A stretch of 51,747 bases of DNA from Perkinsus olseni (taxonomy: Eukaryota). The number at the start of each line of letters is the position of its first letter. Positions within the stretch are counted from its first letter, which is position 1. The notes beneath the pieces are model-generated. The model did no database searches. It was not told the origin of the DNA and saw only the letters and a program-made list of their open reading frames with translations. The position numbers and the translations under genes are program-made. The stretch is taken from the NCBI GenBank assembly GCA_013115125.1, contig JABANN010000220.1, positions 1-51,747 on the forward strand. Direction: 5' to 3'. Positions 15,027 to 51,747 of the stretch are shown here, one piece after another.

Positions 15027-16604
15027 TCACTCAACTAGAAGAACTTTCATAACATTGATAGCTCCGGGTGTTTCCTCCTTCATACCGTGTACGGCTACCA
15101 CCTTTTCACCAACTCTAGCGAAGCCCATCTGCTTAGCATGTTCCAGCGCATTATGGATGACCCTGTCGGAACCCTGGAAGGAGGGGACTTGAAGAGCCCT
15201 AACACCGCGGACCACACTCAAAGATCTCATCGTCGACAAAGATGCCGACAAAGCTAGAATGGGTTGTGAGGGGCGGTACTTAGCCAAGAGGCGGGCTGTG
15301 GCGCCCGTTTCTGTAATAGCAATTATTAGACCGCAGTTTGTCTCAGCTGCAAGATCAACGGCGGCTGAGCAGACGGCCTCTGATGTAGAGAGCCCAGAGG
15401 GGCTATGATTGAGGACACGGCTACGAATTCTCAAGAATAAGGAGTCGTAGTCGATGGACTTCTCGGCGCTCTCGCAGATGCGACGTTGAATGTTAACGGC
15501 TTCAACAGGGAACTTACCACCAGCGGTCTCACCGGAAAGCATGACAGCATCGGTACCATCGAGGACGGCGTTGGCGACATCACTGACCTCGGCACGAGTG
15601 GGCCTGGGGTTCTCGATCATGGACTCGAGCATCTGGGTGGCGGTGATGACGGGCTTGCCAGCGAGGTTGCAGCGGGCAGTCATCATCTTCTGGGCGAGGA
15701 AAACCTTCTCAGGAGGCATCTCCATACCGAGATCACCACGAGCGATCATGATGGCATCGGAAGCCTCGAGGATATCATCGAAGTTCCTGAGACCCTCAGT
15801 GCTCTCGATCTTGGAGATGATCTGAACATTACGACCACGACTCCCCAAAATCTTCCGCAGTCCACGGATATCATCACCGTGCTGCACGAAGGAGACAGCG
15901 ATGAAGTTGATGCCGTTAGGAAGACCCCAGTTGAGGATATCGTTGGCCTCCTTCTCACCGATGCAGGGAAGGTCAACTCTGACGCCGGGGAGGTTCATGT
16001 TCTTACGCTCACCGATGATAGCGTGGTTCAAGACACGAGTCTTGACGCTGTCCTCGTAGCACTCAACGACCTGCAGATTAACCGTACCATCAGCCATGAG
16101 GATGATAGAGCCGGGCTTGACACTCTGGGGGAGCTTCTCGTAGGTGCAGGCAATCTTGTGGGCATCACCCTTGAAGGAGTAATCAGTGGTGAGGATCAAG
16201 TCCTGACCGGCCTCGAGCTCGACCTTGCCACCAGCGGCGAAAAAACCCGAACGGATCTCAGGTCCCTTGGTATCGAGTAGAATGGAGACGTCCCTGTTTG
16301 GCCGCTCCCTGAGTGCATCCCTCAGATTCCTCAAAGTCCGACTATGAGTATCAAAGTCACCATGAGAGAAGTTGAACCTCGCCACGTTTAAGCCCTGATC
16401 AATCATCTTAACCAAAGTATCAACATCCCAGCATGATGGGCCCATAGTGCAGACGAGCTTGGTCTTCCTCTGAAAGGAGTCTTGTTCCTCCAGTCCACCA
16501 CCCCAAGTGGCAAGCTCAGCCATATCATCAGGTACAGCTATATGGGCCTCACCAATCACTCCACAGCCATCGATACGTCGACCTGTAAAACCGTGGTCCG
16601 GCAT
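15027..16604 (-). CDS. PYK: Pyruvate kinase, array copy 1 (intronless, 525 aa)
   Basis: Motifs CTMGP, NFSHG, DTKGPEIR, KIE, IARGDLGME, TATQMLESM, PTRAE..DVANAVLDG, MLSGE. Confidence 0.98.
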   Translation of the reverse strand: MPDHGFTGRRIDGCGVIGEAHIAVPDDMAELATWGGGLEEQDSFQRKTKLVCTMGPSCWDVDTLVKMIDQGLNVARFNFSHGDFDTHSRTLRNLRDALRERPNRDVSILLDTKGPEIRSGFFAAGGKVELEAGQDLILTTDYSFKGDAHKIACTYEKLPQSVKPGSIILMADGTVNLQVVECYEDSVKTRVLNHAIIGERKNMNLPGVRVDLPCIGEKEANDILNWGLPNGINFIAVSFVQHGDDIRGLRKILGSRGRNVQIISKIESTEGLRNFDDILEASDAIMIARGDLGMEMPPEKVFLAQKMMTARCNLAGKPVITATQMLESMIENPRPTRAEVSDVANAVLDGTDAVMLSGETAGGKFPVEAVNIQRRICESAEKSIDYDSLFLRIRSRVLNHSPSGLSTSEAVCSAAVDLAAETNCGLIIAITETGATARLLAKYRPSQPILALSASLSTMRSLSVVRGVRALQVPSFQGSDRVIHNALEHAKQMGFARVGEKVVAVHGMKEETPGAINVMKVLLVE

Positions 16605-16992
16605 TATAAGATGATATTAGAAAAACAAATACAAACTGTTCGAGGCCAAATCGAAGTGCCTGAGTGCTCTCTAGACGTCTTTCACCCATTTTCATCTGCC
16701 ACGCGACGCCAGACTAGCATCATCCGTTTTGTGACAGTACTGTCCCCTAATGCTACGCCATGAGTTAGCCTCACAGCTATAGTGTGCAGTGACCGATAGA
16801 CTCCAACTCGACAACAAAACAGACACTTAGCATTCTCTACAAGCATAAGCCTTTGGATAATAACAACAGTTGTGGTATGATAGTAGTTAGGTAGCCCCGT
16901 AGCAGTAGCAGTGACATCATGGGTAATCAAATGATGATAAGTCCGGTGGCTGTGAAAGGTAGTCATCTAACGTGTAATATCGTCTACACTAT

Positions 16993-18564
16993 CTACTCCA
17001 CAGGGAGAACTTTAACCAGGTTAGTGGCACCAGCAGTCTCCTCTTTCATGCCGTGAACAGCAACAACCTTATCGCCTGTCTTCACTAGTCCCACCTCCTT
17101 ACCATAGTTTATAGCGCTTTGAATGATATGGTCGGTCCCTTGGAAGGATGGTACCTTGAGTGAAATGACACCACGGATAGCACAGAGATGCTTAACGGTA
17201 GAATCAGCGGCAGCAAGGGCGAGGACTTGGACACCAGGGCGGTACTTAGCGAGCAGACGAGCAGTACTGCCAGTCTCAGTGAGGGAAATGATCAATGAGG
17301 CTTTCACCTCACCAGCAAGTTCAACAGCTGCGGAGCATACAGATTCCACGACCGAGAGACCCTGGGGGTTGGCATTCATGACAGCTTCACGGATGCGGAG
17401 GAAGAGCGTCTCGTAGTCGATAACGGCTTCAGCCTCCTCACAGATACGACGCTGGATGGAGATGGCGTTAATAGGGAAGCTGCCGCCAGCCGACTCGCCG
17501 GAGAGCATGACACCGTCGGTGCCGTCAAGGACAGCATTGGCGACATCACTGGCCTCAGCACGGGTAGGTCTAGGATTCGTGATCATAGACTCGAGCATCT
17601 GGGTGGCGGTGATGACGGGCTTACCACGGAGGTTACAACGAGCCATCATCATCTTCTGGGCGAGGAAGACCTTCTCGGGAGGGATCTCCATGCCGAGATC
17701 ACCACGAGCAATCATGATGCCATCGGAGGCCTCAAGGATGTCATCGAAGTTCTTCAGCCCTTCTTCGTTCTCGATCTTGGAAATGAGATGGACGTTTCTT
17801 CCACGTTCGCCCATCAGCTTGCGGAGCCCACGGATATCATCACCGTGCTGGACGAAGGAGACAGCGATGAAGTTGATGCCGTTGGGAAGACCCCAGTTGA
17901 GGATATCGTTGGCCTCCTTCTCACCGATACAGGGAAGGTCTACCTTGACACCAGGGAGGTTCATGTTCTTACGCTCGCCGATGGCCGCGTTATTCATGAC
18001 GCGAGTCTTCACCCCATCCTCGTAGCACTCAAGGACCTTCAAACTAACCGTACCATCAGCCATGAGGATGGTAGAGCCGGGCTTAACACTTTGAGGTAGC
18101 TTGGGGTAGCTGCAGGCAATCTTACTAGCGTCACCCTTGAAACCGTAGTCAGTTGTCAGAGTCAGATCTTGACCAGCTTGCAGCTGGACCTTGCCGCCTG
18201 CAGCGAAGAAGCCCGAACGGATCTCGGGTCCCTTGGTGTCAAGCAAAACGGCGACCTCCTTCCCAGGGCGTTGCTTCAGGGCAGTCCTCAGGTTCTTGAG
18301 GGTGTTGGCGTGGGTTTCGAAATCACCATGAGAGAAGTTGAACCTCGCAATGTTCAAGCCCTGATCAATCATCTTAACCAAAGTATCAACATCCCAGCAT
18401 GATGGGCCCATAGTGCAGATGAGCTTTGTCTTCCTCTGCAGGGAGTCGGCAGCACCGCCATCCCAGGCAGATATCTTGGACATATCATCAGATATAGCGA
18501 TGGCAGCCTGACCGAGGACGGCATATCCCTCCACCTTACGCCCACTGAAGGCTTGGTAGGACAT
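16993..18564 (-). CDS. PYK: Pyruvate kinase, array copy 2 (intronless, 523 aa)
   Basis: Full PK motif set in an uninterrupted ORF. Confidence 0.98.
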   Translation of the reverse strand: MSYQAFSGRKVEGYAVLGQAAIAISDDMSKISAWDGGAADSLQRKTKLICTMGPSCWDVDTLVKMIDQGLNIARFNFSHGDFETHANTLKNLRTALKQRPGKEVAVLLDTKGPEIRSGFFAAGGKVQLQAGQDLTLTTDYGFKGDASKIACSYPKLPQSVKPGSTILMADGTVSLKVLECYEDGVKTRVMNNAAIGERKNMNLPGVKVDLPCIGEKEANDILNWGLPNGINFIAVSFVQHGDDIRGLRKLMGERGRNVHLISKIENEEGLKNFDDILEASDGIMIARGDLGMEIPPEKVFLAQKMMMARCNLRGKPVITATQMLESMITNPRPTRAEASDVANAVLDGTDGVMLSGESAGGSFPINAISIQRRICEEAEAVIDYETLFLRIREAVMNANPQGLSVVESVCSAAVELAGEVKASLIISLTETGSTARLLAKYRPGVQVLALAAADSTVKHLCAIRGVISLKVPSFQGTDHIIQSAINYGKEVGLVKTGDKVVAVHGMKEETAGATNLVKVLPVE

Positions 18565-19130
18565 TTACGTGATTTCGAAGGCGATAAGGAGGCTGCACGA
18601 GATGACCTGCGCCCGCGATTCGGTCCTCCGCCTCACAATCACAGTGCCGGTCATCTATTGGAAACTTCAAGAGACCATCACGACTGACCCCACAGCGCAG
18701 ATCGAGCGTAGCACGCCTGTACACAGTCCGCCCATAGCGGGGCTTGCGCAACAAGCAACAGAGTGCCTTCGAGTGGATTGACCTACGATCAACGTTGATA
18801 ACTTCCTTTGGCCTGCATGATTGAACAAAGCGTAGCAGCACTCATTCTACATGGGTATGGTCACGCAGCGAGTTGCATGCATTATGTGGAAGCAAATGGA
18901 TTGAGATTTGCACGCATGCACATTGTGAGTATAAATTCCGGCGGCCCGAACTCCCCCGCGGGGGGAATACGGCTCCGTCGCAGTACTTACTGCATCAGCG
19001 GATCACTATCAGCTTGACCCCAGTGATACTGTTGATACCACTGGGCATACGAATAACGTTTGGTGTGGTACCAGACTGATGATAAAATCCTAACATTTGA
19101 TCGACAAGAAGAAGTTGACGTTGACTCAGA

Positions 19131-19415
19131 CACCTCACAGCGTCGTCGTCGTCCTNNNNNNNNNNNNNNNNNNNNNNNNNNNNNNNNNNNNNNNNNNNNN
19201 NNNNNNNNNNNNNNNNNNNNNNNNNNNNNNNNNNNNNNNNNNNNNNNNNNNNCGTCGTCCTCCGTATCGGCATCACCTCACAGCGTCGTCGTCGTCGTCG
19301 TCGGCCTCCGTATCGGCATCACCTCACAGCGTCGTCGTCGTCGTCGGCCTCCGTATCGGCATCACCTCACAGCGTCGTCGTCGTCGTCGTCGGCCTCCGT
19401 ATCGGCATCACCTCA
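19131..19415. repeat. ~43-46 bp minisatellite CACCTCACAGC(GTC)nGGCCTCCGTATCGGCAT spanning an assembly gap (Ns at 19156-19252)
   Basis: At least three full units right of the gap and a partial unit left of it. The GTC copy number varies between units. Confidence 0.92.
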
Positions 19416-19792
19416 GTGATTCTGCCAACACATTTTCGCGAATTTTCAGCGTTGCTACGATTCTCGAAATTTCAACTCTAAAAATTCGTGAGGGGTGGGC
19501 GGGCCCCTGTCAAGTCGACACTCTGTAGATCACTAACACGAGCATCCACCTTTAATGTGTCCTCCAGCATTCCTCGCACAATAAGATCCTGCAATGGAGC
19601 TGGCCACACCCTTGGCAGACTACGGGAATGCTACTGACAACACAACAAGATGTCACTATAGGCAACACAGCGGAGTAACCGACTGCTGAGCCAATTGGCT
19701 AACTGTTACGCCAAAATGCACCACAATAAGTGGAATGATGAAGTTTTGATTACAGTAGGAGATAACTCACGGTAGACTGCAACGTTTGCTAT

Positions 19793-21361
19793 TTACTCGA
19801 CATTGACAACCTCCATCATGTTGGTGGCACCGGCGGTGTTCTCCTTGATACCATGAACGGCAACAACCTTATCACCAGCCTTCACGAGACCAACAGACTT
19901 GGCGTACTCGAGAGCCTTGGCGACGACAGCCTCGGTATCCTTAAAGGACTCAACCTGGAAGGGGAGGATGCCACGGGCGACGGCAGTGTGGGCGACGGTG
20001 TGCTCGTTATCAGTGACGCACAAGATCTGCTGACGAGGACGGTACTTGCCCAAGAGACGAGAAGTAGAGCCAGTCTGGCTGAGGGCGAGGATGAGGGAGG
20101 CGTTGACCTCGGAGGCGAGAGCAACGGCGTTGGAGCAGATAGACTCGGCAACGGGGAGACCCTCGGGGTGCTTGTTCATGACGGCCTCGCGGATGCGGAG
20201 GTAAAGGGAGTCGTAGTCGATGACAGACTCCGCGCTCTCGCAGATGCGACGCTGGATGGAGATGGCGTTCACGGGGAACTTACCGTTAGCAGCTTCACCA
20301 GAAAGCATGACACCATCGGTACCGTCGAGGACGGCGTCGGCGACATCACTGACCTCGGCACGAGTGGGCCTGGGGTTCTCGATCATGGACTCGAGCATCT
20401 GGGTAGCGGTGATGACGGGCTTGCCTGCGAGGTTGCAGCGGGCAGTCATCATCTTCTGGGCGAGGAAGACCTTCTCAGGGGGCATCTCCATACCGAGATC
20501 ACCACGAGCGATCATGATGGCATCGGAAGCCTCGAGGATATCATCGAAGTTCCTGAGACCCTCAGTGCTCTCGATCTTGGAGATGATCTGGACGTTCTTA
20601 CCGGCCTCACCCATCAACTTGCGGAGACCACGGATATCATCACCGTGCTGGACGAAAGAAGCGGAGATGAAATCGATTCCGTTGGGAAGACCCCAGTTGA
20701 GGATATCGTTAGCCTCCTTCTCACCGATGCAAGGAAGGTCAACTCTGACGCCGGGGAGGTTCATGTTCTTACGCTCACCGATGATAGCGTGGTTCAAGAC
20801 ACGAGTCTTGACGCTGTCCTCGTAGCACTCAACGACCTGCAGATTAACCGTACCATCAGCCATGAGGATGATAGAGCCCGGCTTGACACTCTGGGGGAGC
20901 TTCTCGTAGGTGCAGGCAATCTTGTGGGCATCACCCTTGAAGGAGTAATCAGTGGTGAGGATCAAGTCCTGACCGGCCTCGAGCTCGACCTTGCCACCAG
21001 CGGCGAAGAAACCCGAACGGATCTCAGGTCCCTTGGTATCAAGCATGACGGCGACGTGCTTGCCGGGGCACTGCTTGAGGGCCTCCTTGAGGTTGGCGAG
21101 GCACTTGCTGTGGCTCTCGAAGTCACCGTGGGAGAAGTTGAACCTGGCGATGTTAAGGCCCTGGTTGATCATCTTGACCAAAGTCTCGACATCCCAATCG
21201 GAGGGGCCCATAGTGCAGGTAAGAGTGGTCTTACGGGTGATGGGGTCACAGCTGGAACCATCCCAGGAAGCGAGATCAGCCATCTGGTCAGTGATGGAGA
21301 CGGCGGCCTGGCCGATGACACCGTGGTCCTTCATGGAGCGTCCGCTGAAACCGTGAGACAT
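19793..21361 (-). CDS. PYK: Pyruvate kinase, array copy 3 (intronless, 522 aa)
   Basis: Full PK motif set, nearly identical to copy 4. Reads DVADAV instead of DVANAV. Confidence 0.98.
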   Translation of the reverse strand: MSHGFSGRSMKDHGVIGQAAVSITDQMADLASWDGSSCDPITRKTTLTCTMGPSDWDVETLVKMINQGLNIARFNFSHGDFESHSKCLANLKEALKQCPGKHVAVMLDTKGPEIRSGFFAAGGKVELEAGQDLILTTDYSFKGDAHKIACTYEKLPQSVKPGSIILMADGTVNLQVVECYEDSVKTRVLNHAIIGERKNMNLPGVRVDLPCIGEKEANDILNWGLPNGIDFISASFVQHGDDIRGLRKLMGEAGKNVQIISKIESTEGLRNFDDILEASDAIMIARGDLGMEMPPEKVFLAQKMMTARCNLAGKPVITATQMLESMIENPRPTRAEVSDVADAVLDGTDGVMLSGEAANGKFPVNAISIQRRICESAESVIDYDSLYLRIREAVMNKHPEGLPVAESICSNAVALASEVNASLILALSQTGSTSRLLGKYRPRQQILCVTDNEHTVAHTAVARGILPFQVESFKDTEAVVAKALEYAKSVGLVKAGDKVVAVHGIKENTAGATNMMEVVNVE

Positions 21362-22648
21362 TCTTTATTCGGAAAAATGAACTGCAAGCGAGCCGATTCG
21401 TAGAACCATAACAGCAGAATCTAAGCCGAGCTACGATTATAGTCATGACAAATCGACTGACATCAGTCAGAAAATGATGATCCCAAGAGACACTGGTGGG
21501 TCACTGAATGATTATCGGCGTAGGTGAAGCGCTGAACACTGCGCAGCTACATCGACGAGCACACAAATGATCTGTCCCAAAGCTCTGTCCCTCTCTGATA
21601 GGTCCATGGTGCTCCGAGAGGGGCAAGAAATCCGACAAGGGGCCGGATCGCGACATGACAGCATTCCTTGGAGGCCGGCCTCCAAATACGCCCTCTTTCC
21701 ATGGGGCGTGTTATTAGTCGGGCCAATGCTGTCATCATCTAACTCGATGGGAACTCCGATGTACTTTTGGTGGATATTGCCTCCGATTTAGCGTCAGAGA
21801 ACTGCCCCTGAGCCTGCATACTCACAGCGGCCCTCGACAACGTGTTGCGATGTTATGAGAGACTCTGTAGGCTTCCAGTGACTTGTTAGGGCTGCGATTC
21901 CGATCAGCTATTGCGACCCCGGTTGACCGATACTCGGAATCGAGCCCCAGCCCTCCAATTCGGAATGAAAATACTATCATCAAGATTTACTCCGATAACT
22001 GATGGATTTTCGATTGGTAAATCACTGACACACAGAATTGCATCGACAAGCCAACTATCGTTTCACTATCGAGGGGCTGCCTCAATTAGCTCCACACCAT
22101 CCCACTGGATACGTCCGGCCGAGGACCATTACAGTGGATCCAAACAGGCCCGTCCCCCTGTTAACGCTGAGTCACTACGAACCTGTCCGTAGTCACCCGA
22201 TGAAAACTTCCCCAATCCATCCTCTTCACTATCCGCCACCGAAGATGCGACTGGGGTAAAGGTGAGTAACAGTACTCACCGTGAGTATATACAGTTTGTT
22301 ACGGATACAATGCAACATGAAGAATGCGGCCACTATGCCACGTGGTGCGAAAACGGCGGTCAAATAGAGTTTAACAAGTCCTGAGCCCGCTTCTGAGTGC
22401 TGTTGCCACTTGGTATAGCAGCCTCATTCCTATCATTATGATTAAGACAACTTTCGAGTGTAGCTGATGACTAGCTCAACACGTTGGCATGATGCAAGAA
22501 ACGGAATAACCGATATATTATTTGCCTACAGGCAGCAGCACAGCTCCGACTATTACGTTAGTGGAGCACAACTATTGTGCTCGATTGTCCAAAAAGACAG
22601 TGGTTCAATCGATAAGAAGAAAGAGGAATGGTTTTTGAAGAGAGTAAC

Positions 22649-24217
22649 TTACTCAACATTGACAACCTCCATCATGTTGGTGGCACCGGCGGCGTTCTCC
22701 TTGATACCGTGAACGGCAACAACCTTATCACCAGCCTTCACGAGACCAACAGACTTGGCGTACTCGAGAGCCTTGGCGATGACAGCCTCGGTATCCTTAA
22801 GGGACTCAACCTGGAAGGGGAGGATGCCACGGGCGACGGCAGTGTGGGCGACGGTGTGCTCGTTATCAGTGACGCACAAGATCTGCTGACGAGGACGGTA
22901 CTTGCCCAAGAGACGAGAAGTAGAGCCAGTCTGGCTGAGGGCGAGGATGAGGGAGGCGTTGACCTCGGAGGCGAGAGCAACGGCGTTGGAGCAGATAGAC
23001 TCGGCAACGGGGAGACCCTCGGGGTGCTTGTTCATGACGGCCTCGCGGATGCGGAGGTAAAGGGAGTCGTAGTCGATGACAGACTCCGCGCTCTCGCAGA
23101 TGCGACGCTGGATGGAGATGGCGTTCACGGGGAACTTACCGCTGGCGGCCTCACCAGAAAGCATGACACCATCGGTACCATCGAGGACGGCGTTGGCGAC
23201 ATCACTGACCTCGGCACGAGTGGGCCTGGGGTTCTCGATCATGGACTCGAGCATCTGGGTGGCGGTGATGACGGGCTTGCCAGCGAGGTTGCAGCGAGCA
23301 GTCATCATCTTCTGGGCGAGGAAGACCTTCTCAGGGGGCATCTCCATACCGAGATCACCACGAGCGATCATGATGGCATCGGAAGCCTCGAGGATATCAT
23401 CGAAGTTCCTGAGACCCTCAGTGCTCTCGATCTTGGAGATGATCTGGACGTTCTTACCGGCCTCACCCATCAACTTGCGGAGACCACGGATATCATCACC
23501 GTGCTGGACGAAAGAAGCGGAGATGAAATCGATTCCGTTGGGAAGACCCCAGTTGAGGATATCGTTAGCCTCCTTCTCACCGATGCACGGAAGGTCAACC
23601 CTGACGCCGGGGAGGTTCATGTTCTTACGCTCACCGATGATAGCGTGGTTCAAGACACGAGTCTTGACGCTGTCCTCGTAGCACTCAACGACCTGCAGGT
23701 TAACCGTACCATCAGCCATGAGGATGATAGAGCCGGGCTTGACACTCTGGGGGAGCTTCTCGTAGGTGCAGGCAATCTTGTGGGCATCACCCTTGAAGGA
23801 GTAATCAGTGGTGAGGATCAAGTCCTGACCGGCCTCGAGCTCGACCTTGCCACCAGCGGCGAAGAAACCCGAACGGATCTCAGGTCCCTTGGTATCGAGC
23901 ATGACGGCGACGTGCTTGCCGGGGCACTGCTTGAGAGCCTCCTTGAGGTTGGCGAGGCACTTGCTGTGGCTCTCGAAGTCACCGTGGGAGAAGTTGAACC
24001 TGGCGATGTTAAGGCCCTGGTTGATCATCTTGACCAAAGTCTCGACATCCCAATCGGAGGGGCCCATAGTGCAGGTAAGAGTGGTCTTACGGGTGATGGG
24101 GTCACAGCTGGAACCATCCCAGGCAGCGAGGTCAGCCATCTGGTCAGTGATGGAGACGGCGGCCTGGCCGAGGACACCGTGGTCCTTGATGGAGCGTCCG
24201 CTGAAGCCGTGAGACAT
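22649..24217 (-). CDS. PYK: Pyruvate kinase, array copy 4 (intronless, 522 aa)
   Basis: Full PK motif set with strongly biased codon use. Confidence 0.98.
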   Translation of the reverse strand: MSHGFSGRSIKDHGVLGQAAVSITDQMADLAAWDGSSCDPITRKTTLTCTMGPSDWDVETLVKMINQGLNIARFNFSHGDFESHSKCLANLKEALKQCPGKHVAVMLDTKGPEIRSGFFAAGGKVELEAGQDLILTTDYSFKGDAHKIACTYEKLPQSVKPGSIILMADGTVNLQVVECYEDSVKTRVLNHAIIGERKNMNLPGVRVDLPCIGEKEANDILNWGLPNGIDFISASFVQHGDDIRGLRKLMGEAGKNVQIISKIESTEGLRNFDDILEASDAIMIARGDLGMEMPPEKVFLAQKMMTARCNLAGKPVITATQMLESMIENPRPTRAEVSDVANAVLDGTDGVMLSGEAASGKFPVNAISIQRRICESAESVIDYDSLYLRIREAVMNKHPEGLPVAESICSNAVALASEVNASLILALSQTGSTSRLLGKYRPRQQILCVTDNEHTVAHTAVARGILPFQVESLKDTEAVIAKALEYAKSVGLVKAGDKVVAVHGIKENAAGATNMMEVVNVE

Positions 24218-25209
24218 GATGTTGAGGAATATAATTCACTGTGGCAAAGACATCCTTAATCCTATATCGTACACTACTGCATCAGTATTGTCACACTACC
24301 AAGGACAAGCGTTCGTCGACACTGCACAAGGCGGTCACCTCCAGACGGGGGATTTAGCTAAGCAACGACGATCGCTTGGGGGACACCTCCACACAAAGCT
24401 CGGGAACCTCGGACAGGCGCGCGAGATCCCTGCTAAGACCTGCAGGGAAGGACTGGTCAGCGGTACATCATCGACCACGGCTCGCGATATCCAAGCTTAA
24501 CAAGGCATCGAAGCGGACTCTTGAGAAGTCGATTGCTGTTGGACCCACGCGCCGAAAATTGATGATGACCAATCCCACAGTTAGCATCGTAGATACCGTA
24601 GCGATACAAGCGGCGATGCTTCTTGTGATTAGCGAACGCTGACCTCATGGACCCGCCATGATACTAGAAAAGATAGACCGCTTGTCTGTACCGGTCAACT
24701 CCTCGTACGGTATCTTCAGCACACCCCGTGATTTGCGTATGCGTGCAGATGGAGCACGTTAGGGAGGTACGACCAACACATCCGCCGCCATGCCGTGATA
24801 GAGTATCGTTTGCCGGGTGAATGTGATCACCGACATTAACACTTCGAACTCAAATCAGAGTTCCCTAGGAGGAATGACTTCCAGCATCTCTTGGCATCAC
24901 CAATAGCGAAGTCCATAGCGATAAAGATCAGCAGTAGTTCGAGATACATAGGAATTACAAGGCGTACTACGCACAAACTGCGATTGGTAAGTAGACGGTC
25001 CCATGACCATTACTGAGCGTACTACTTATATATACTCTATTAGGGAAGAGGAAGAAGTAAGAAAAACACGGTTGAAGCAGACCAGTCATGACGGTATGGT
25101 CAGCAAAACTGTTGTTACTAATCTACGGTTATGGGTGTATTCGCCGACGACAATCGTCAAAGATCAGCAGCCAAATGACTCATATTTACAACGGGAGTGA
25201 CTCAGAATT

Positions 25210-26835
25210 TCACTCCACAACGAGAACCTTAATCTGGTTGCTAGCACCAGGGGTAGACTCTTGCATGCCATGGACGGCAACAACTTTATCACCAACTCGG
25301 CACATCCCCATCTGCTTAGCGTGGGCGAGGGCATTATGAAGGATGTGATCAGATCCTTGAAAGGAAGGCACTTGCAGGGCCATGACGCCCCTAGAGAGAG
25401 CTAAGTGCTTCACAGTCGACTCGAACGCTGAGAGGGCCAAAATCTGTTGTGATGGCCTGTACTTAGCCAAAAGGCGAGCAGTGTTACCGGTCTCAGTGAG
25501 AGCGACGATGATGGAGGCATCGCATTCTACAGCTGTCTTTACAGCCGATACGCATACTGCCTCTGAGGTACACAGACCCTCAGGATGAGCATTCATAACA
25601 GCCTGTCGAATGCGAGAGTAAAGGCCATCATAGTCGATTGAATGCTCGGCAACCTCACAAATAGATCGTTGAATGTGGACTGAACTCACGGGGAACTTAC
25701 CACCAGCGGTCTCACCGGAAAGCATGACAGCATCGGTACCATCGAGGACGGCGTTGGCGACATCACTGACCTCGGCACGAGTGGGCCTGGGGTTCTCGAT
25801 CATGGACTCGAGCATCTGGGTGGCGGTGATGACGGGCTTGCCTGCGAGGTTGCAGCGGGCAGTCATCATCTTCTGGGCGAGGAAGACCTTCTCAGGAGGC
25901 ATCTCCATACCGAGATCACCACGAGCGATCATGATGGCATCGGAAGCCTCGAGGATATCATCGAAGTTCCTGAGACCCTCAGTGCTCTCGATCTTGGAGA
26001 TGATCTGAACATTACGACCACGACTCCCCAAAATCTTCCGCAGTCCACGGATATCATCACCGTGCTGCACGAAGGAGACAGCGATGAAGTTGATGCCGTT
26101 GGGGAGACCCCAGTTGAGGATATCGTTGGCCTCCTTCTCACCGATGCAGGGAAGGTCAACTCTGACGCCGGGGAGGTTCATGTTCTTACGCTCACCGATG
26201 ATAGCGTGGTTCAAGACACGAGTCTTGACGCTGTCCTCGTAGCACTCAACGACCTGCAGGTTAACCGTACCATCAGCCATGAGGATGATAGAGCCGGGCT
26301 TGACACTCTGGGGGAGCTTCTCGTAGGTGCAGGCAATCTTGTGGGCATCACCCTTGAAGGAGTAATCTGTGGTGAGGATCAAGTCCTGACCGGCCTCGAG
26401 CTCGACCTTGCCACCAGCGGCGAAGAAACCCGAACGGATCTCAGGTCCCTTGGTATCGAGTAAAATGGAGACGTCCCTGTTTGGCCGCTCCCTGAGTGCA
26501 TCCCTCAGATTCCTCAAAGTCCGACTATGAGTATCGAAGTCACCATGGGAGAAGTTGAACCTCGCCACGTTCATGCCCTGATCAATCATCTTAACCAAAG
26601 TATCAACATCCCAGCATGATGGGCCCATAGTGCAGATGAGCTTGGTCTTCCTCGTTAGAGAGTCTGGAGAGTAGCAGTTCTCATTCCACACGGACAACTC
26701 AGCCAAGTCATCGGCAACAGCAAGATCGGCCTGACCAAGTGCTCGACTCCCTTCAATGTACCGCCCCGTGAAGCCATGATCAGCTACAGGGGTGTCAATA
26801 ACGGCGGAGGCAGCAGCAACAGCAGCACCGGCCAT
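25210..26835 (-). CDS. PYK: Pyruvate kinase, array copy 5 (intronless; likely start MAGAAVAAAS at 26835, ORF open to 26922)
   Basis: Full PK motif set. The core is nearly identical to copy 1. Confidence 0.97.
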   Translation of the reverse strand: MAGAAVAAASAVIDTPVADHGFTGRYIEGSRALGQADLAVADDLAELSVWNENCYSPDSLTRKTKLICTMGPSCWDVDTLVKMIDQGMNVARFNFSHGDFDTHSRTLRNLRDALRERPNRDVSILLDTKGPEIRSGFFAAGGKVELEAGQDLILTTDYSFKGDAHKIACTYEKLPQSVKPGSIILMADGTVNLQVVECYEDSVKTRVLNHAIIGERKNMNLPGVRVDLPCIGEKEANDILNWGLPNGINFIAVSFVQHGDDIRGLRKILGSRGRNVQIISKIESTEGLRNFDDILEASDAIMIARGDLGMEMPPEKVFLAQKMMTARCNLAGKPVITATQMLESMIENPRPTRAEVSDVANAVLDGTDAVMLSGETAGGKFPVSSVHIQRSICEVAEHSIDYDGLYSRIRQAVMNAHPEGLCTSEAVCVSAVKTAVECDASIIVALTETGNTARLLAKYRPSQQILALSAFESTVKHLALSRGVMALQVPSFQGSDHILHNALAHAKQMGMCRVGDKVVAVHGMQESTPGASNQIKVLVVE

Positions 26836-27326: not shown

Positions 27327-29108
27327 TTAGTCCACCTCGAGAACCTTCATCAGATTGCTAGAACCACTGACCTCCTCCTTCACGCCGTGCACAGCGACGA
27401 TCTTATCACCCACGGAACACAGCCCCACCTGTTTGGCGTGTTCAAGGGCATTCCTAATGACATGATCAGTACCCTGGAAGGATGGCACCTGTAGGGCTAC
27501 TATCCCCCTGTATAACTGTAAGTGCTTAATAGTAGACTCCGACGCCGACAGGGCAAGGATTGGCGGAGATGGTCGATATTTGGACAGTAACTTGGCCGTA
27601 GCGCCCTGAGAAAAAAAACGAGGAATGATAATCACCACCACGAGCACCACTGGTAGCATTATTACCGTTTCTGTAAGGGCAACGATGAGCGTGGCATTAC
27701 ATTCAATACAAGCCTTCACGGCAGAGGAGCAGACCGCCTCTGGTATCGCCAAACCCTGACACGACAACACTTGCCAATTACCCATGCCACCGTCGCCGCT
27801 TACACCATCGTTCTGATTCATGACAGTCTCTCGTATCCTCTGGAACAGGGTATCATAGTCAATAGAGGACTCGGCCTCCTCACAGATCCTCCTCATAATA
27901 GACACCGCTTGAACCGGGAATGCACCGCCGGCCGACTCGCCGGAGAGCATCACAACATCAGTACCGTCAAGGACAGCATTGGCGACATCACTGGCCTCAG
28001 CACGAGTAGGTCTAGGATTCGTGACCATGGACTCCAGCATCTGGGTGGCGGTGATGACGGGCTTGCCCATCAGGTTGCATCGCCCAGTCATCATCTTCTG
28101 GGCGAGGAAGACCTTCTCGGGAGGAATCTCCATACCGAGATCACCACGAGCGATCATGATGCCATCGGAAGCTGCGAGGATATCATCGAAATGCTTCATG
28201 CCAGACTCATTCTCGATTTTAGAGATGATCTTGATGTGACGCCCTCTCGGTCCAAGCAGCTTGCGGAGGCCTCTGACCTACCAGAACAAACGATATTAAT
28301 CAGCGGCACCCAAGCACCTGTTGTTATTACATCATCGCCATCTTGGACGAAGGATGCTGCTATGAAGTTAACTCCTTGCGGAATCCCAAAATTAAGGATA
28401 TCATTCTTGTCCTTCTCGCTGATACACGGCAGGTCCACTCTGACCCCAGGGAGGTTCATATTTTTACGTTCCCCAATAGTAGCATTGTTCATAACACGCG
28501 TCCTCACACTGTCTTCAAGGCATTCGATCACTTCCAGACTGACAGTTCCATCGGCCATAAGGATGGTGGACCCAGGTTTGACACTCTGGGGTAGCTTTGC
28601 ATAGCTACAGGCAATCTTGGTAGAGTCACCCTTAAAATCGTAGTCGGTGGTCAGAACAAGCTCCTGGCCAGCTTCTAATTTAACCTTGCCGCCTTCCTCC
28701 TTGAAAAAACCAGTTCTAATTTCCGGGCCCTTAGTGTCGAGGAGTATCGCCACATGCTTCCCGGGACGCTGCTTCAACGCTTCTCTTATGCGCTGAACGG
28801 TGGCTCCATGAGCTTCGAAATCCCCGTGGGAAAAATTGAGTCTGACAGGAAAAAATCTATCCACTAACACCTACAGTTTACCATTACCTCGCCACGTTCA
28901 TGCCCTGATCAATCATCTTGACCAAAGTATCAACATCCCAGCATGATGGGCCCATAGTGCAGATGATCTTGGTCTTCCTCGAGAAGGTATCAGTAGCATT
29001 AGAACTCCACTTCGATAACGCTGCCATGTCGTCAGACAGTACTATAGACGCCTGGCCGTAGACGCAGTGGTCTTTGATGAACCGTCCGGTGTATCCGTGG
29101 GTCGACAT
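27327..29108 (-). CDS. PYK: Pyruvate kinase, array copy 6, with four short introns
   Basis: Exons MSTHGY..MNVAR / LNFSHG..QDGDD / VRGLRK..NQNDG / GLAIPE..LTET / GATAKL..KVLEVD*. GT-AG introns lie near 28843-28886, 28278-28328, 27756-27803 and 27606-27665; the last two are in-frame and stop-free. Confidence 0.95.
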
Positions 29109-36111: not shown

Positions 36112-36734
36112 TCATGATAGTTGTCCACAATCGGCAATTACTACAACTTGTGAAGTCGCTCCGCTAGAGGACCCAACACTCTCCATCTTCCTCACAACAT
36201 CCATGCCATCAGTTACCTGGAAAATGAGGTAACCCTCTAATATACTCGAAGAGGGCATATACGCACCTTCCCGAACACCACATGCTTGCCATCGAGCCAG
36301 GAGGTCTTCTCAGTGCAGATGAAGAATTGACTTCCATTCGTATTGGGACCAGAATTAGCCATGGACAGTATCCCTGGTCCAGTGTGCTTCAGCTGGAAGT
36401 TCTCATCCTTGAACTTAGCCCCGTAGATGGACTCACCGCCAGTCCCGTTACCTGGGAGAGAGGGCGCGTTACTACGGAGCAGCTCAGAGCGGCAGTCGAT
36501 CTTACCGTTGGTGAAGTCGCCTCCTTGGCACATGAACTTCGGAATGATACGATGAAAGCTGCTGCCTTTGAAGTGAAGTGCCTTGCCTGACTTGCCAACA
36601 CCTCTCTCACCAGTGCATAGACAACGGAAGTTCTCTGCTGTATCGGGAACAACATCCGCAGCGAGCTCGAAGGTCACGCGGCCGACGGGAGAACCGCCGA
36701 TGGTGATGTCGAAGAAAACGGTGGGGTTGGGCAT
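36112..36734 (-). CDS. Cytosolic cyclophilin (CypA-type PPIase), two introns
   Basis: [61 protein letters not shown] / [16 protein letters not shown]. Confidence 0.97.
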
Positions 36735-38149
36735 GGTGAGAGTGAGCGAACAAGTTGTGTCAGCTACCTCGGTCGCAGAAATCGCATTAAATCAGGCAAG
36801 CATACCTTAGGTCAAATCGTAGGGGCGATCCAGAGAGCAGGACTTGGCTACGAAGCCCGGGTTTGAGTCTAAGACATGAACGCACCGCACCAGGAGGATG
36901 CGTGCTGACGGTTTCATCTCGACAACCGTTTCTCGGATCTTATCTTAAGAGAGCAAGTGACCATAGCAGTAGTGACTGAGTCGCAATGAATAGCTCAACT
37001 CTGCCATCTGATTCCGCTGAGAAGCACATTCAACAACATCCTGGCCCTCAGGCCCATCCTTCCGCACGCACGCACCGAGACGACCCAGCGACATGTCGAT
37101 AGCCGTTGAGTGTAGCGCATAACCATTATGGCGCTGTTTGCCTCGGATAATACGCTTTGCCGTCCTCAGGGAGTAACTTGAGAGCTATCCGTTCTCTTCC
37201 ACCTATAGCTCAGTATGCGGCTGCGAACGAACACGAGCGCTCCGAAGGTACATCGCATTTCGGCCTCGCCTAGGGCGAGTCGCCCTCCACAGCTATTGTG
37301 GACGATGGGCACGCGTGCGACTCGTCAGCAGCGATATCGATAGATCGTTTGATCGACAGAGCGCGTCTTCGTTGCCAACGAATCGTTGGCTGATCTTGCA
37401 AGCCGGTCCCTATGCATTTTAAGTTGCCGTTATTCTTGTAACCGTGGATAATTTAGTGCGGTGGAGGAGCCAGTCTCTCGAACTCAATGTACAACTTCGT
37501 GAAGTTTCGTCGACCCCATGACTGAGGATAAAAGAAACCACTACGTGGTGCCTTATGCTGCTTTCTCCTTACTGTACGGGATGAGCTCGTGATAGGTGTC
37601 ATCCACGAAGCGCAACGGTCGGCCAATTCCGGCAACCAAACGTGAAGATCTTTGATTTTTCAATGAGCAGGACAAGACCCGTCAATCGTGGAGCATGAGT
37701 GCCGGCCAACAAGAAACACGCGGAGGGCTCGGTCAGCCGGGGTAACCCACCTGATCCAGTATAGTTTCGTCCAGCGCTCAACTGATCCAATATGAGTTCG
37801 TCCAGTTTCAGGCGGCCCAGTGCCACTTCGTCCATCTCATTTCATTCATAAAAGCCGCCCATAAAATCAGATTTCGTTTCATCCAGTCACTTTTTCCATC
37901 AATTTCTTTTTATCTCATATCGCCCACAGAACCTTTTAATTCGGGATCAAAGATGCCGCGTTCGGTAGCTGGCGTGTTAGGTTAACCAGGAATTTTTCTT
38001 CCCGCCCACCCGAGCGATGTGCATCAGAGTCCCGCCCCTCCCGAGAGTACGATGTGCCTGCTGAGCACATCGTGCTATAGCAGGCTGAGTTTACTACCGT
38101 TTTTCCTGCCTCAGCGCCCGCTCATACGCATGCGCAATGCGCATAGCTC

Positions 38150-39438: not shown

Positions 39439-41106
39439 ATGCTCCATAATATGTTCCTTCTACTCGTCCCCTTCATAGGGACAATGTATGGCGTTGATGC
39501 CCTCCAGGCGACCAACGCTCGTTTCACGGCTACCACCACCAAGTATTGTAACAAGGACCTCCTGGATTCCAATGGCAACCCCGCACCCTGCGGGATATCC
39601 ATGGCTAGAGAAACCTACGGCCTGACTCTACCCGGTATGGAAGACGGTAGCCTCACCACGAGACAAGATGTGATTGCCACTAAGGAGGGTCAAGTGACTA
39701 TTGAGGCTTCCCCAAGCCGCCCCTATCAGTACATGATGTATGTTGAGACCCCTGAACTCCGAAAGGTCGATCAGATATTCATGAACACGGCCCGTACTGT
39801 CCTCGAGGAGACTCATGGTACCGAGCGAATGCTCGCTGTGGCAACTCAGAACTCCCAAAGCCTCGAAGAGGACGGCTGGATCAATGAAGGCGCCGAGTCA
39901 GTCGACGGCGGATCTTACACTAAGTGGGTTCTTCACGGTCCCGAAGGGGTAAATCCCAAAGACGGTACCAATTACACCGCTCTCTATGAGACTGGTCTCC
40001 AGCCCGATACCTGGGTGCTCTATACTGACGAGTCTGCTAACAAGCCTCATAAGCTCCTTGCCATCAACACACACAAGAACGGCAAGGTCTTCCAAGAGAC
40101 TACTATTGATAGCTGGGAATCTCTCGGTGATGAGGTCGGTGTTCAGCACGCCACCAATGAGATGTTTTCGACTTACAATGTCGATTCCTCTCGTTTGCTC
40201 TCGACTGGCGATATGAAGGTGCCCTTCGTCGACTCTGCTTATCTCACCGTTGACTACATCCCCGAAAGCGCTCGCGCTTTCTTCGAGGACGGAGAAGACT
40301 ACGACTGGATGCCCGAGCATCGCAGTCTCAGACAGGGTGCCGGCTTTAAGGGTATTCAGTACTTCACCATCGAGAAGGGGTCCGCTGCCGATTCGTTCTT
40401 CCGCGCCAACACAATGAGGGAGCTCATCCAGATCGCTAAGTTCGAGTTCCCCAAGAGCTGCAAGGATAAGGACGGCAAGCAGATCCCTGGGAAGTATTGC
40501 CTTTACGTCCAACTGGATGTAACGACGGATCCATCGGTCTCACTCGAGGCTGGCATGACCTTCGTGGATGTGAACAACCCGGACATAACAGCTCATTTGA
40601 AGTTGGCCGTCAGCCTCAAGGATACCGACGGTTCTGCCGTCCTTGACCTGTCCTTCGAAGCCGGTGGATGTGCTGTTGTCTTCCAAGTCGGCGAAGGCTT
40701 CAGCCTCTCTATCAACGTGTGCATCACGGGTAAGGCTTCAGGCGAAAACCTGTTGCAGCCCGACAAGCGCACGTTCTCCGGTTCGGTCGAGCTCACAGTG
40801 AGCTTCAACGTTAATGTGCCAGTCGCTGGTAGCATCATCCACTGGGCCATAACTGCTAAACTGGGCGTCACTGCCAAGCCTCAGAATGACATCTCGGCCT
40901 ACGGTAGCCTGGGAACCGATGTTTCGCTATGGATTGCTGGCGCTGCTGTATCGATCGACATCAAGGGTAACACCGTAAGCCATATGGCAAACAGGTGGGA
41001 GTTCGTCTCCGGAGTCAACTTCAACGCCTGGGTCAAGGTCTTGTTCTGGGGTACATCTTGGAGCCATCGTTGGGAGATCTGGCACGCTGGCCCCGTTACA
41101 TTCTAA
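39439..41106 (+). CDS. Intronless 555 aa predicted secreted protein of unknown family
   Basis: Long ORF with strong C-ending codon bias and a hydrophobic N-terminal signal (MFLLLVPFIGTMYGVDA). The C-terminal third is rich in beta-strand-like sequence. Confidence 0.92.
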   Translation: MLHNMFLLLVPFIGTMYGVDALQATNARFTATTTKYCNKDLLDSNGNPAPCGISMARETYGLTLPGMEDGSLTTRQDVIATKEGQVTIEASPSRPYQYMMYVETPELRKVDQIFMNTARTVLEETHGTERMLAVATQNSQSLEEDGWINEGAESVDGGSYTKWVLHGPEGVNPKDGTNYTALYETGLQPDTWVLYTDESANKPHKLLAINTHKNGKVFQETTIDSWESLGDEVGVQHATNEMFSTYNVDSSRLLSTGDMKVPFVDSAYLTVDYIPESARAFFEDGEDYDWMPEHRSLRQGAGFKGIQYFTIEKGSAADSFFRANTMRELIQIAKFEFPKSCKDKDGKQIPGKYCLYVQLDVTTDPSVSLEAGMTFVDVNNPDITAHLKLAVSLKDTDGSAVLDLSFEAGGCAVVFQVGEGFSLSINVCITGKASGENLLQPDKRTFSGSVELTVSFNVNVPVAGSIIHWAITAKLGVTAKPQNDISAYGSLGTDVSLWIAGAAVSIDIKGNTVSHMANRWEFVSGVNFNAWVKVLFWGTSWSHRWEIWHAGPVTF

Positions 41107-51531: not shown

Positions 51532-51621
51532 TCTGATACTTTCCGCAATCCCTTGGGTTGAGCAGCGGCCGCTTAACCCAAGCCACTCAAGCCAGTAGTG
51601 CTACTTCGAGTTGAGGGGCAA

Positions 51622-51690
51622 GGGGGGGGGGGGGGTGGGGGGCCGGGGGGGGGGGGTAGCCGGCCGGGGGGGCCGTTGGGGGGGGCGAAT

Positions 51691-51747
<57 letters not shown>
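51622..51747. other. Poly-G contig end, probable sequencing artefact
   Basis: Near-pure G run at the terminus with no telomeric repeat unit, typical of two-colour sequencing no-signal calls. Confidence 0.8.

Follow-up and report, generated by a model that had tools for sequence, protein, structure and literature searches.

Patchwork gene conversion within a tandem array of six pyruvate kinase genes in Perkinsus olseni

Tandem gene arrays of Trypanosoma brucei provide a described precedent for the locus reported here: 21 of 47 arrays contained chimaeric copies, with partial gene conversion as the process (PMC1855330; comparisons here and below refer to parts of the published texts). We analyzed a 51,747-nt stretch of Perkinsus olseni DNA (contig JABANN010000220.1 of GenBank assembly GCA_013115125.1, positions 1 to 51,747; hereafter the window), whose minus strand carries six pyruvate kinase (PK) genes arranged head to tail in the order c6-c5-c4-c3-c2-c1. 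Patchwork conversion in this array was confirmed as real and ongoing. The process itself is known, as in trypanosome arrays, and the PK array is a new instance of it; the literature searched held no published account of this array, which genome papers may mention.

Like the T. brucei arrays, the PK array consists of tandem paralogs in a trans-splicing protist and contains chimaeras whose converted parts lose orthology, while less conserved regions escape. It differs from those arrays, as far as they are described in the source, in encoding a housekeeping allosteric enzyme and in showing sharp domain-scale tracts, a codon mark of the donor, and a tract end marked by an intron. The PGK A/B/C array of T. 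brucei (PMC7729029) is a similar case, in which glycolytic kinase isozymes lie in tandem, alike in their catalytic parts and different in their ends or expression. Its copies differ by compartment and life stage, whereas PK is a regulated tetramer. Gene conversion has reportedly taken place between the T. brucei PGK genes. Dinoflagellate genes (PMC2488372) also include tandem intronless copies, separated by distinct spacers and trans-spliced, and are intron-poor and highly expressed there; unlike those near-identical repeats, the PK copies are long-diverged isozymes without a leader-like relic. Duplicated histone and ribosomal protein genes of yeast (PMC4700949) are likewise conserved housekeeping genes subject to conversion, possibly kept by selection on the complex, and expression alone did not account for their conversion. 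The yeast duplicates are unlinked, whole-genome ones, whereas in the PK array conversion is confined to a part of each gene. Toxoplasma gondii has one cytosolic PK gene (PMC2939071), compared with six in the Perkinsus array.

Five of the genes, namely c1 (positions 15027..16604, 525 aa), c2 (16993..18564, 523 aa), c3 (19793..21361, 522 aa), c4 (22649..24217, 522 aa) and c5 (25210..26835, 541 aa), are intronless; these are the copies listed in an earlier note based on the sequence alone. That note missed the sixth copy, c6 (27327..29108, 524 aa), which also takes part in the exchange and has four GT-AG introns of 46–60 nt (28887-28842, 28330-28278, 27803-27756 and 27665-27606), all four present as spliced joints in RNA run X7. 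These genes, and the tracts, the island and the spacer intron given below, lie on the minus strand. Of the six copies, c6 is nearest to apicomplexan PK1, as seen in the trees. The c1 protein occurs in identical form in another assembly.

Copies c1, c3, c4 and c5 are ~98–99% identical at the DNA level in the B domain and over most of A2. The near-identity of these copies between the motifs DTKG and GKFPV, as first noted, thus stands in degree, except that the tract shared by c3/4 with c1/5 ends ~10 codons before GKFPV, and only c1 and c5 reach GKFP. The B-domain tract of c4 (23543..23897; c1 counterpart 16275-15921) is common to c1, c3 and c5; from DTKG it extends for 358 nt with five mismatches between c1 and c4, and c1/c4 and c4/c5 share 356–358 nt with 4–5 mismatches. 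Beyond an island, a second tract of c4 in A2 (23170..23446; c1 counterpart 15824-15548) is again common to all four copies, with 4 of 285 nt differing between c1 and c4. The island itself (15825..15918 in c1) is common to c5 and, in its first part, to c2, and is unlike c3/4, as previously proposed: it differs at 1/96 nt between c1 and c5, at 2/57 nt in the part shared with c2, and at 28/96 nt between c1 and c4. The extended sharing between c1 and c5 was also borne out, as one tract of 961 nt through A1, the B domain and A2 (15513..16470 in c1, 25696..26653 in c5; aligned as 16470-15513 versus 26653-25696) with 13 mismatches. Copies c3 and c4 match over the whole coding sequence (CDS), with 25 differences in 1566 gap-free columns; from the first base beyond it their flanks show no relation, the abrupt stop that had been described. 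The tracts of c2 are short, two of them in common with c1/c5. In c6, a tract in exon 1 (28888..28981) is common to c5, and also to c1 and c2; between c5 and c6 it shows 2 mismatches in 92 nt and stops at intron 1 of c6, just past which 7 mismatches fall within 22 nt. An all-against-all BLAST of the spacers gave a best match of 35 nt at 77% (E 0.006), the remainder being noise.

Silent sites show that this sharing is not a property of the genes as a whole. Between c1 and c5, silent-site divergence (pS) was 0.04 in the core, compared with 0.69 in the N-terminus and 0.80 in the C region, where silent sites are saturated; the ends of these two copies are indeed very different, and synonymous divergence along the genes is far from uniform. 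Based on a permutation test with 190 silent polymorphic sites and all 15 copy pairs, tracts were significant at p ≤ 0.0005 in five pairs (c1c3, c1c4, c1c5, c3c5 and c4c5). Three further pairs had p values of 0.01–0.03, failing correction for 15 tests, and seven were non-significant; a c2/c6 tract (9/96 nt differing) reached p = 0.059 at silent sites and was not significant. The patchwork proposed earlier is further upheld by trees of the core and the C domain, which conflict while gene order is conserved.

Domain limits were obtained by aligning c4 to T. gondii PK1 (PDB 3EOE/3GG8; Toxoplasma number = c4 residue + 13), its best solved relative (E 1e-170), which has the same domains, as delimited in the published structure (PMC2939071, consulted in part). 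The tract common to c1, c3, c4 and c5 spans the entire B domain together with the catalytic portion of A2; A1, the last A helix, the C domain and the island of 32 codons lie outside it. The idea that conversion produces identical A-A' tetramer surfaces was rejected, as it holds only by half: helix 9 lies inside the tract and helix 12 outside.

The core carries a codon signature. A-ending codons are nearly absent throughout c3/4. In c1, a recipient-type copy, they make up 2/164 codons of the core versus 30/133 of the C region (p = 9e-10), the codon contrast that had been noticed at the outset, and c5, also of recipient type, has 4/164 versus 24/126. The control, c6, showed no contrast (20/164 versus 21/130, p = 0.4), and c2 a weak one (p = 0.035). 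At the tract edges, residues of c3/4 type (M106, D230, ISAS, D342) occur in c1, c5 or c2 rows of the protein alignment, and residues of c1/5 type in A1 or the island are absent from all ten c3/4 rows. Variants of exon 1 pass between c1, c2, c5 and c6, and exchange with c6 goes both ways. An ancestry test by distance to c2 over all sites was supportive (p = 0.0006 versus c1, 0.011 versus c5). A net flow from c3/4 to c1/5, as judged from what became fixed, is supported by codons and boundary residues, as the earlier note had it, except that the flow is not strictly one-way, since c3/4 rows also contain residues of c2 type. The same picture would arise from symmetric exchange under a selective filter in c3/4. 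An open antisense frame coinciding with the tract in c1 had been offered as a further mark; it exists, running over 15441-16277 rather than 15486-16280, and is a weak marker because c2 carries a similar one (17299-18096). Neither its reading as a gene nor that as a specific marker was retained.

The same arrangement recurs in other Perkinsus records. Based on protein clusters, a P. olseni contig of 451 kb repeats the order c6-c5-c4-c3-c2-c1, which recurs in part on P. marinus contigs of 306 and 538 kb, the latter with a single c3/4 copy, and likewise in part in P. chesapeaki; N-terminus, core and C domain are linked identically across these records. The protein alignment comprised 21 of the 44 listed cluster members, three fragments from a further search and two outgroups; cluster members belonging to the window itself, short fragments, fused models that were redundant and neighbors other than PK were dropped, and rows with ≥30% gaps were omitted from the trees. 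In the C-domain tree (30 rows) the rows group by paralog and c6 stands next to the outgroups, whereas in the core tree (31 rows) all c1/3/4/5 rows form one 100/100 clade. Among 14 full-length rows, core protein distance was 0.011 for same-species paralogs (31 pairs) and 0.016 for between-species orthologs (18 pairs); for the C domain the values were 0.463 and 0.094. No c1 or c3/4 core protein of P. chesapeaki was found in protein database searches.

Individual residues follow the species or the contig. Residue 175 is E in 9/9 P. marinus rows and Q in 10/10 P. olseni rows, two of which are near-duplicates of the window's proteins. In P. marinus, S348 is present in all three copies of one contig and P153 in all three of the other, so that the contig and not the paralog decides; D153 is common to c1, c4 and c5 in another P. 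olseni assembly. Because species- and haplotype-specific core residues are shared among paralogs, conversion is ongoing. The distinction between c3 (D342/N361) and c4 (N342/S361) is retained in P. olseni as well as P. marinus and may reflect selection. Two records labeled Oxyrrhis marina (P0151, P0152) sit within the Perkinsus c2 clade beside P. chesapeaki and are probably mislabeled or contaminated transcriptome records.

Our preferred explanation, to which we assign a probability of roughly 0.8, is an old array of six paralogs under recurrent DNA-level ectopic gene conversion, with a core derived mainly from the c3/4 lineage. Six cytosolic-type PK paralogs would recurrently exchange DNA wherever the copies remain alike: in the B domain and catalytic A2 of c1/3/4/5, over the whole CDS of c3/c4, and in short tracts with c2 and c6. 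Conversion would have ended in the N-termini, the last A helix, the C domain and the spacers, where homology was lost through divergence or interrupted by an intron. The core would descend mainly from the codon-biased c3/4 lineage, and the asymmetry probably arises as selection in c3/4 rejects incoming changes and c1/c5 tolerate overwriting.

Several observations weigh against this explanation or parts of it. One P. olseni c3 carries a c2-type G281, and the c3/4 row of one P. marinus contig a c2-type P153 that may be ancestral, both against one-way flow. With the short c2 tracts removed, the ancestry test by c2 distance was non-significant at all silent sites (p = 0.07–0.29). Copies c6 and c2 have relaxed codons though apparently expressed above c3/4 in run X7. 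A single intron boundary informs on the template, the evidence across species is at the protein level only, with few variable sites, and the core tree does not resolve the branching within the c1/3/4/5 clade.

The earlier note had entertained an RNA template, and conversion by cDNA from abundant c3/4 mRNA into c1/c5 accords with several features of the locus: c1–c5, three enolase genes and five GAPDH copies are all intronless, in a genus where introns were present in 69.2% of 104 genes examined (PMC3101222), similarity halts at the CDS ends, and retroelements are reported from P. marinus (PMC2868825, in the part consulted). Against it, the c5/c6 tract, the only informative one, ends exactly at intron 1 of c6, which is retained, no leader relic lies in the 400 nt upstream of any of the six copies, and untranslated regions and spacers are unrelated. 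In run X7, the deepest contigs belong to c6 and c2 and not to the main donors: contig depth, which in one RNA library is a poor proxy of expression, was 727–817 for c6, at least 479 for c2, 158 for the C region of c3/4, 54 for c5 and 30 for c1. Transcripts of c3/4 thus appear to exceed those of c1/5 yet to rank below c6 and c2, and the high expression first ascribed to c3/4 holds only relative to c1 and c5. That codon bias is tied to expression is unproven, because c6 and c2 look more expressed yet have relaxed codons. DNA-level conversion is the simpler account, and we give templating by RNA little credence. The intronless state of c1–c5 may record one old cDNA event; a single intron loss suffices because c6 is basal.

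The leader itself was seen in X7, where c2 RNA carries a spliced-leader end at an AG ~30 nt upstream of the ATG (window position 18593), its end agreeing with the published Perkinsus spliced leader (PMC3101222, as far as given in the part consulted). A scan for relics of it in the 400 nt upstream of each of the six copies found none above shuffled background. The c5-c4 spacer holds a 109-nt GT-AG intron (24438..24546), at whose AG the c4 RNA contig begins; X7 contains a minor cis-spliced joint across it, from the 3' region of c5 to the c4 leader, and a single contig that extends from c2 through the spacer into the start of c1 (16426-17551). Both are compatible with read-through transcription resolved by trans-splicing, without being proof of it.

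Other glycolytic genes bear on the template as well. Three tandem intronless enolase genes (G000:C3308; L021:2745-7572) include a codon-biased copy, e2 (1/342 A-ending codons), which e3 matches at codons ~91–200 and ~316–400 with 88–99% identity and few or no A-ending codons; the e2/e3 tract gave p = 0.015 (one of three pairs, uncorrected). The enolase array thus shows a similar, weaker pattern to that of the PK array. Dispersed, intronless GAPDH copies had no significant tract in any of ten pairs among five copies, and this difference from the adjacent enolases also speaks against a cDNA template. Further enolase pieces stop at contig edges (L013-L015), and two inverted GAPDH genes (G000:C2707; L022:1931-6001) are ~99% identical, including upstream sequence.

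A gain in GC is expected in converting regions. Symmetric conversion with GC-biased repair could generate the codon signature with no donor to be named, and silent third-position GC (GC3s) does climb from 0.53 in the C region of c1 to ~0.70 in the tract. Only A-ending codons vanish, however, the share of T-ending codons being ~0.27–0.31 compared with 0.28 in c1, and boundary residues travel mostly outward from c3/4. As T-ending codons do not fall, GC-biased repair is disfavored, and we consider it about as improbable as the cDNA route.

Purifying selection with shared codon preference, or recent duplication or unequal crossover, would dispense with conversion altogether. No part of PK is more conserved than the core, and unequal crossover can yield the likeness of c3 and c4, as well as the presence of only one c3/4 copy on one of the P. 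marinus contigs. The same core has nevertheless diverged at silent sites in other copies (B domain, 60–62/74 for c6 and 38–39/75 for c2), paralogs have species- and haplotype-specific residues in common, and c3 and c4 retain, in both species, flanks of their own and residues tied to their position. These observations make such an origin very unlikely.

Least likely of all is a collapsed or mis-threaded short-read consensus, for although the assembly is fragmented, with a 97-N gap within the array, and contigs of DNA run X3 (which may be from the same strain as the window) break at the shared tracts and leave the ends unphased, every core carries private variants, the gene order and N-core-C links recur on the 451-kb P. 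olseni and the 306- and 538-kb P. marinus contigs, the X3 spacers lie in unique contigs of even depth (153–179) with no differing letters, X3 depth summed over four cores is, by a rough measure, 4.3 times that of the spacers, and collapse would itself presuppose near-identical cores. Because its contigs break at the tracts, X3 confirms the repeats and not their phase.

The C domains bear on regulation. The effector segments of Toxoplasma PK1, namely T437-E438-T439 (within T437-T442), the P480-T485 loop and H512/E516 (PMC2939071, as described in the part consulted), are retained in c1, c2, c6 and P. olseni c5. In c3/4 of all three Perkinsus species two of the three are changed, S-Q-T replacing T437-E438-T439 and VES(L/F)KD replacing the PSFQGT loop, from which we predict that c3/4 would be regulated differently from the other four enzymes. 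The third segment is changed in P. marinus c5 (P0005, P0136), where the C-terminal effector loop is fast-changing, with D at the E516 equivalent, and possibly under relaxed selection. The earlier picture of interchangeable allosteric domains was overstated: the C domains never swap, and are not literally interchangeable because each stays with its own N-terminus, and in the window the effector site is altered only in c3/4. A more far-reaching proposal, which we regard as doubtful, is that selection holds the tract boundaries and that codon-optimized c3/4 supply an identical B+A2 module to c1/c5, combining the same active site with different regulation and possibly mixed tetramers, with residues 342 and 361 of c3 and c4 held apart across species although conversion surrounds them; the same might run in other glycolytic arrays such as enolase.

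A PK-domain search of the genome returned eight matches, every one inside this array, a search that intron-split genes may escape. PF00224 (PK barrel) scored above cut-off in all six copies, and was present together with PK_C (PF02887) in c1, c4 and c5, the three copies scanned for both. In the public gene models P0124, P0128, P0131, P0141 and P0142, neighboring PKs, or c6 and upstream genes, are merged into proteins of 578–1546 aa, and these fusions are probably annotation errors. The 97-N gap lies in the c2-c3 spacer (19157-19253), flanked by a 43–46 nt minisatellite (19140-19415) whose loose ends suggest that it occurs elsewhere in the genome. Elsewhere in the window are an intronless open reading frame of 555 aa on the plus strand (39439-41103) with a DUF6740 match (PF20525, E 5e-226) and a hydrophobic N-terminus, and, on the minus strand, pieces of cyclophilin (36240-36791) and DnaJ (2547-2909) genes, split by apparent introns. 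The contig ends in poly-G low complexity (51610-51747), likely a sequencing or assembly artefact.

For Perkinsus, these results mean that PK trees based on the core mislead, as do database gene models in which neighboring copies are fused into proteins of 1038–1546 aa. Donor bias, type of template and selection on tract edges become testable here from public sequence. The array is a clean natural case of domain-limited conversion, with a codon marker of the donor, a tract end marked by an intron, and variants caught spreading among the paralogs of a species.

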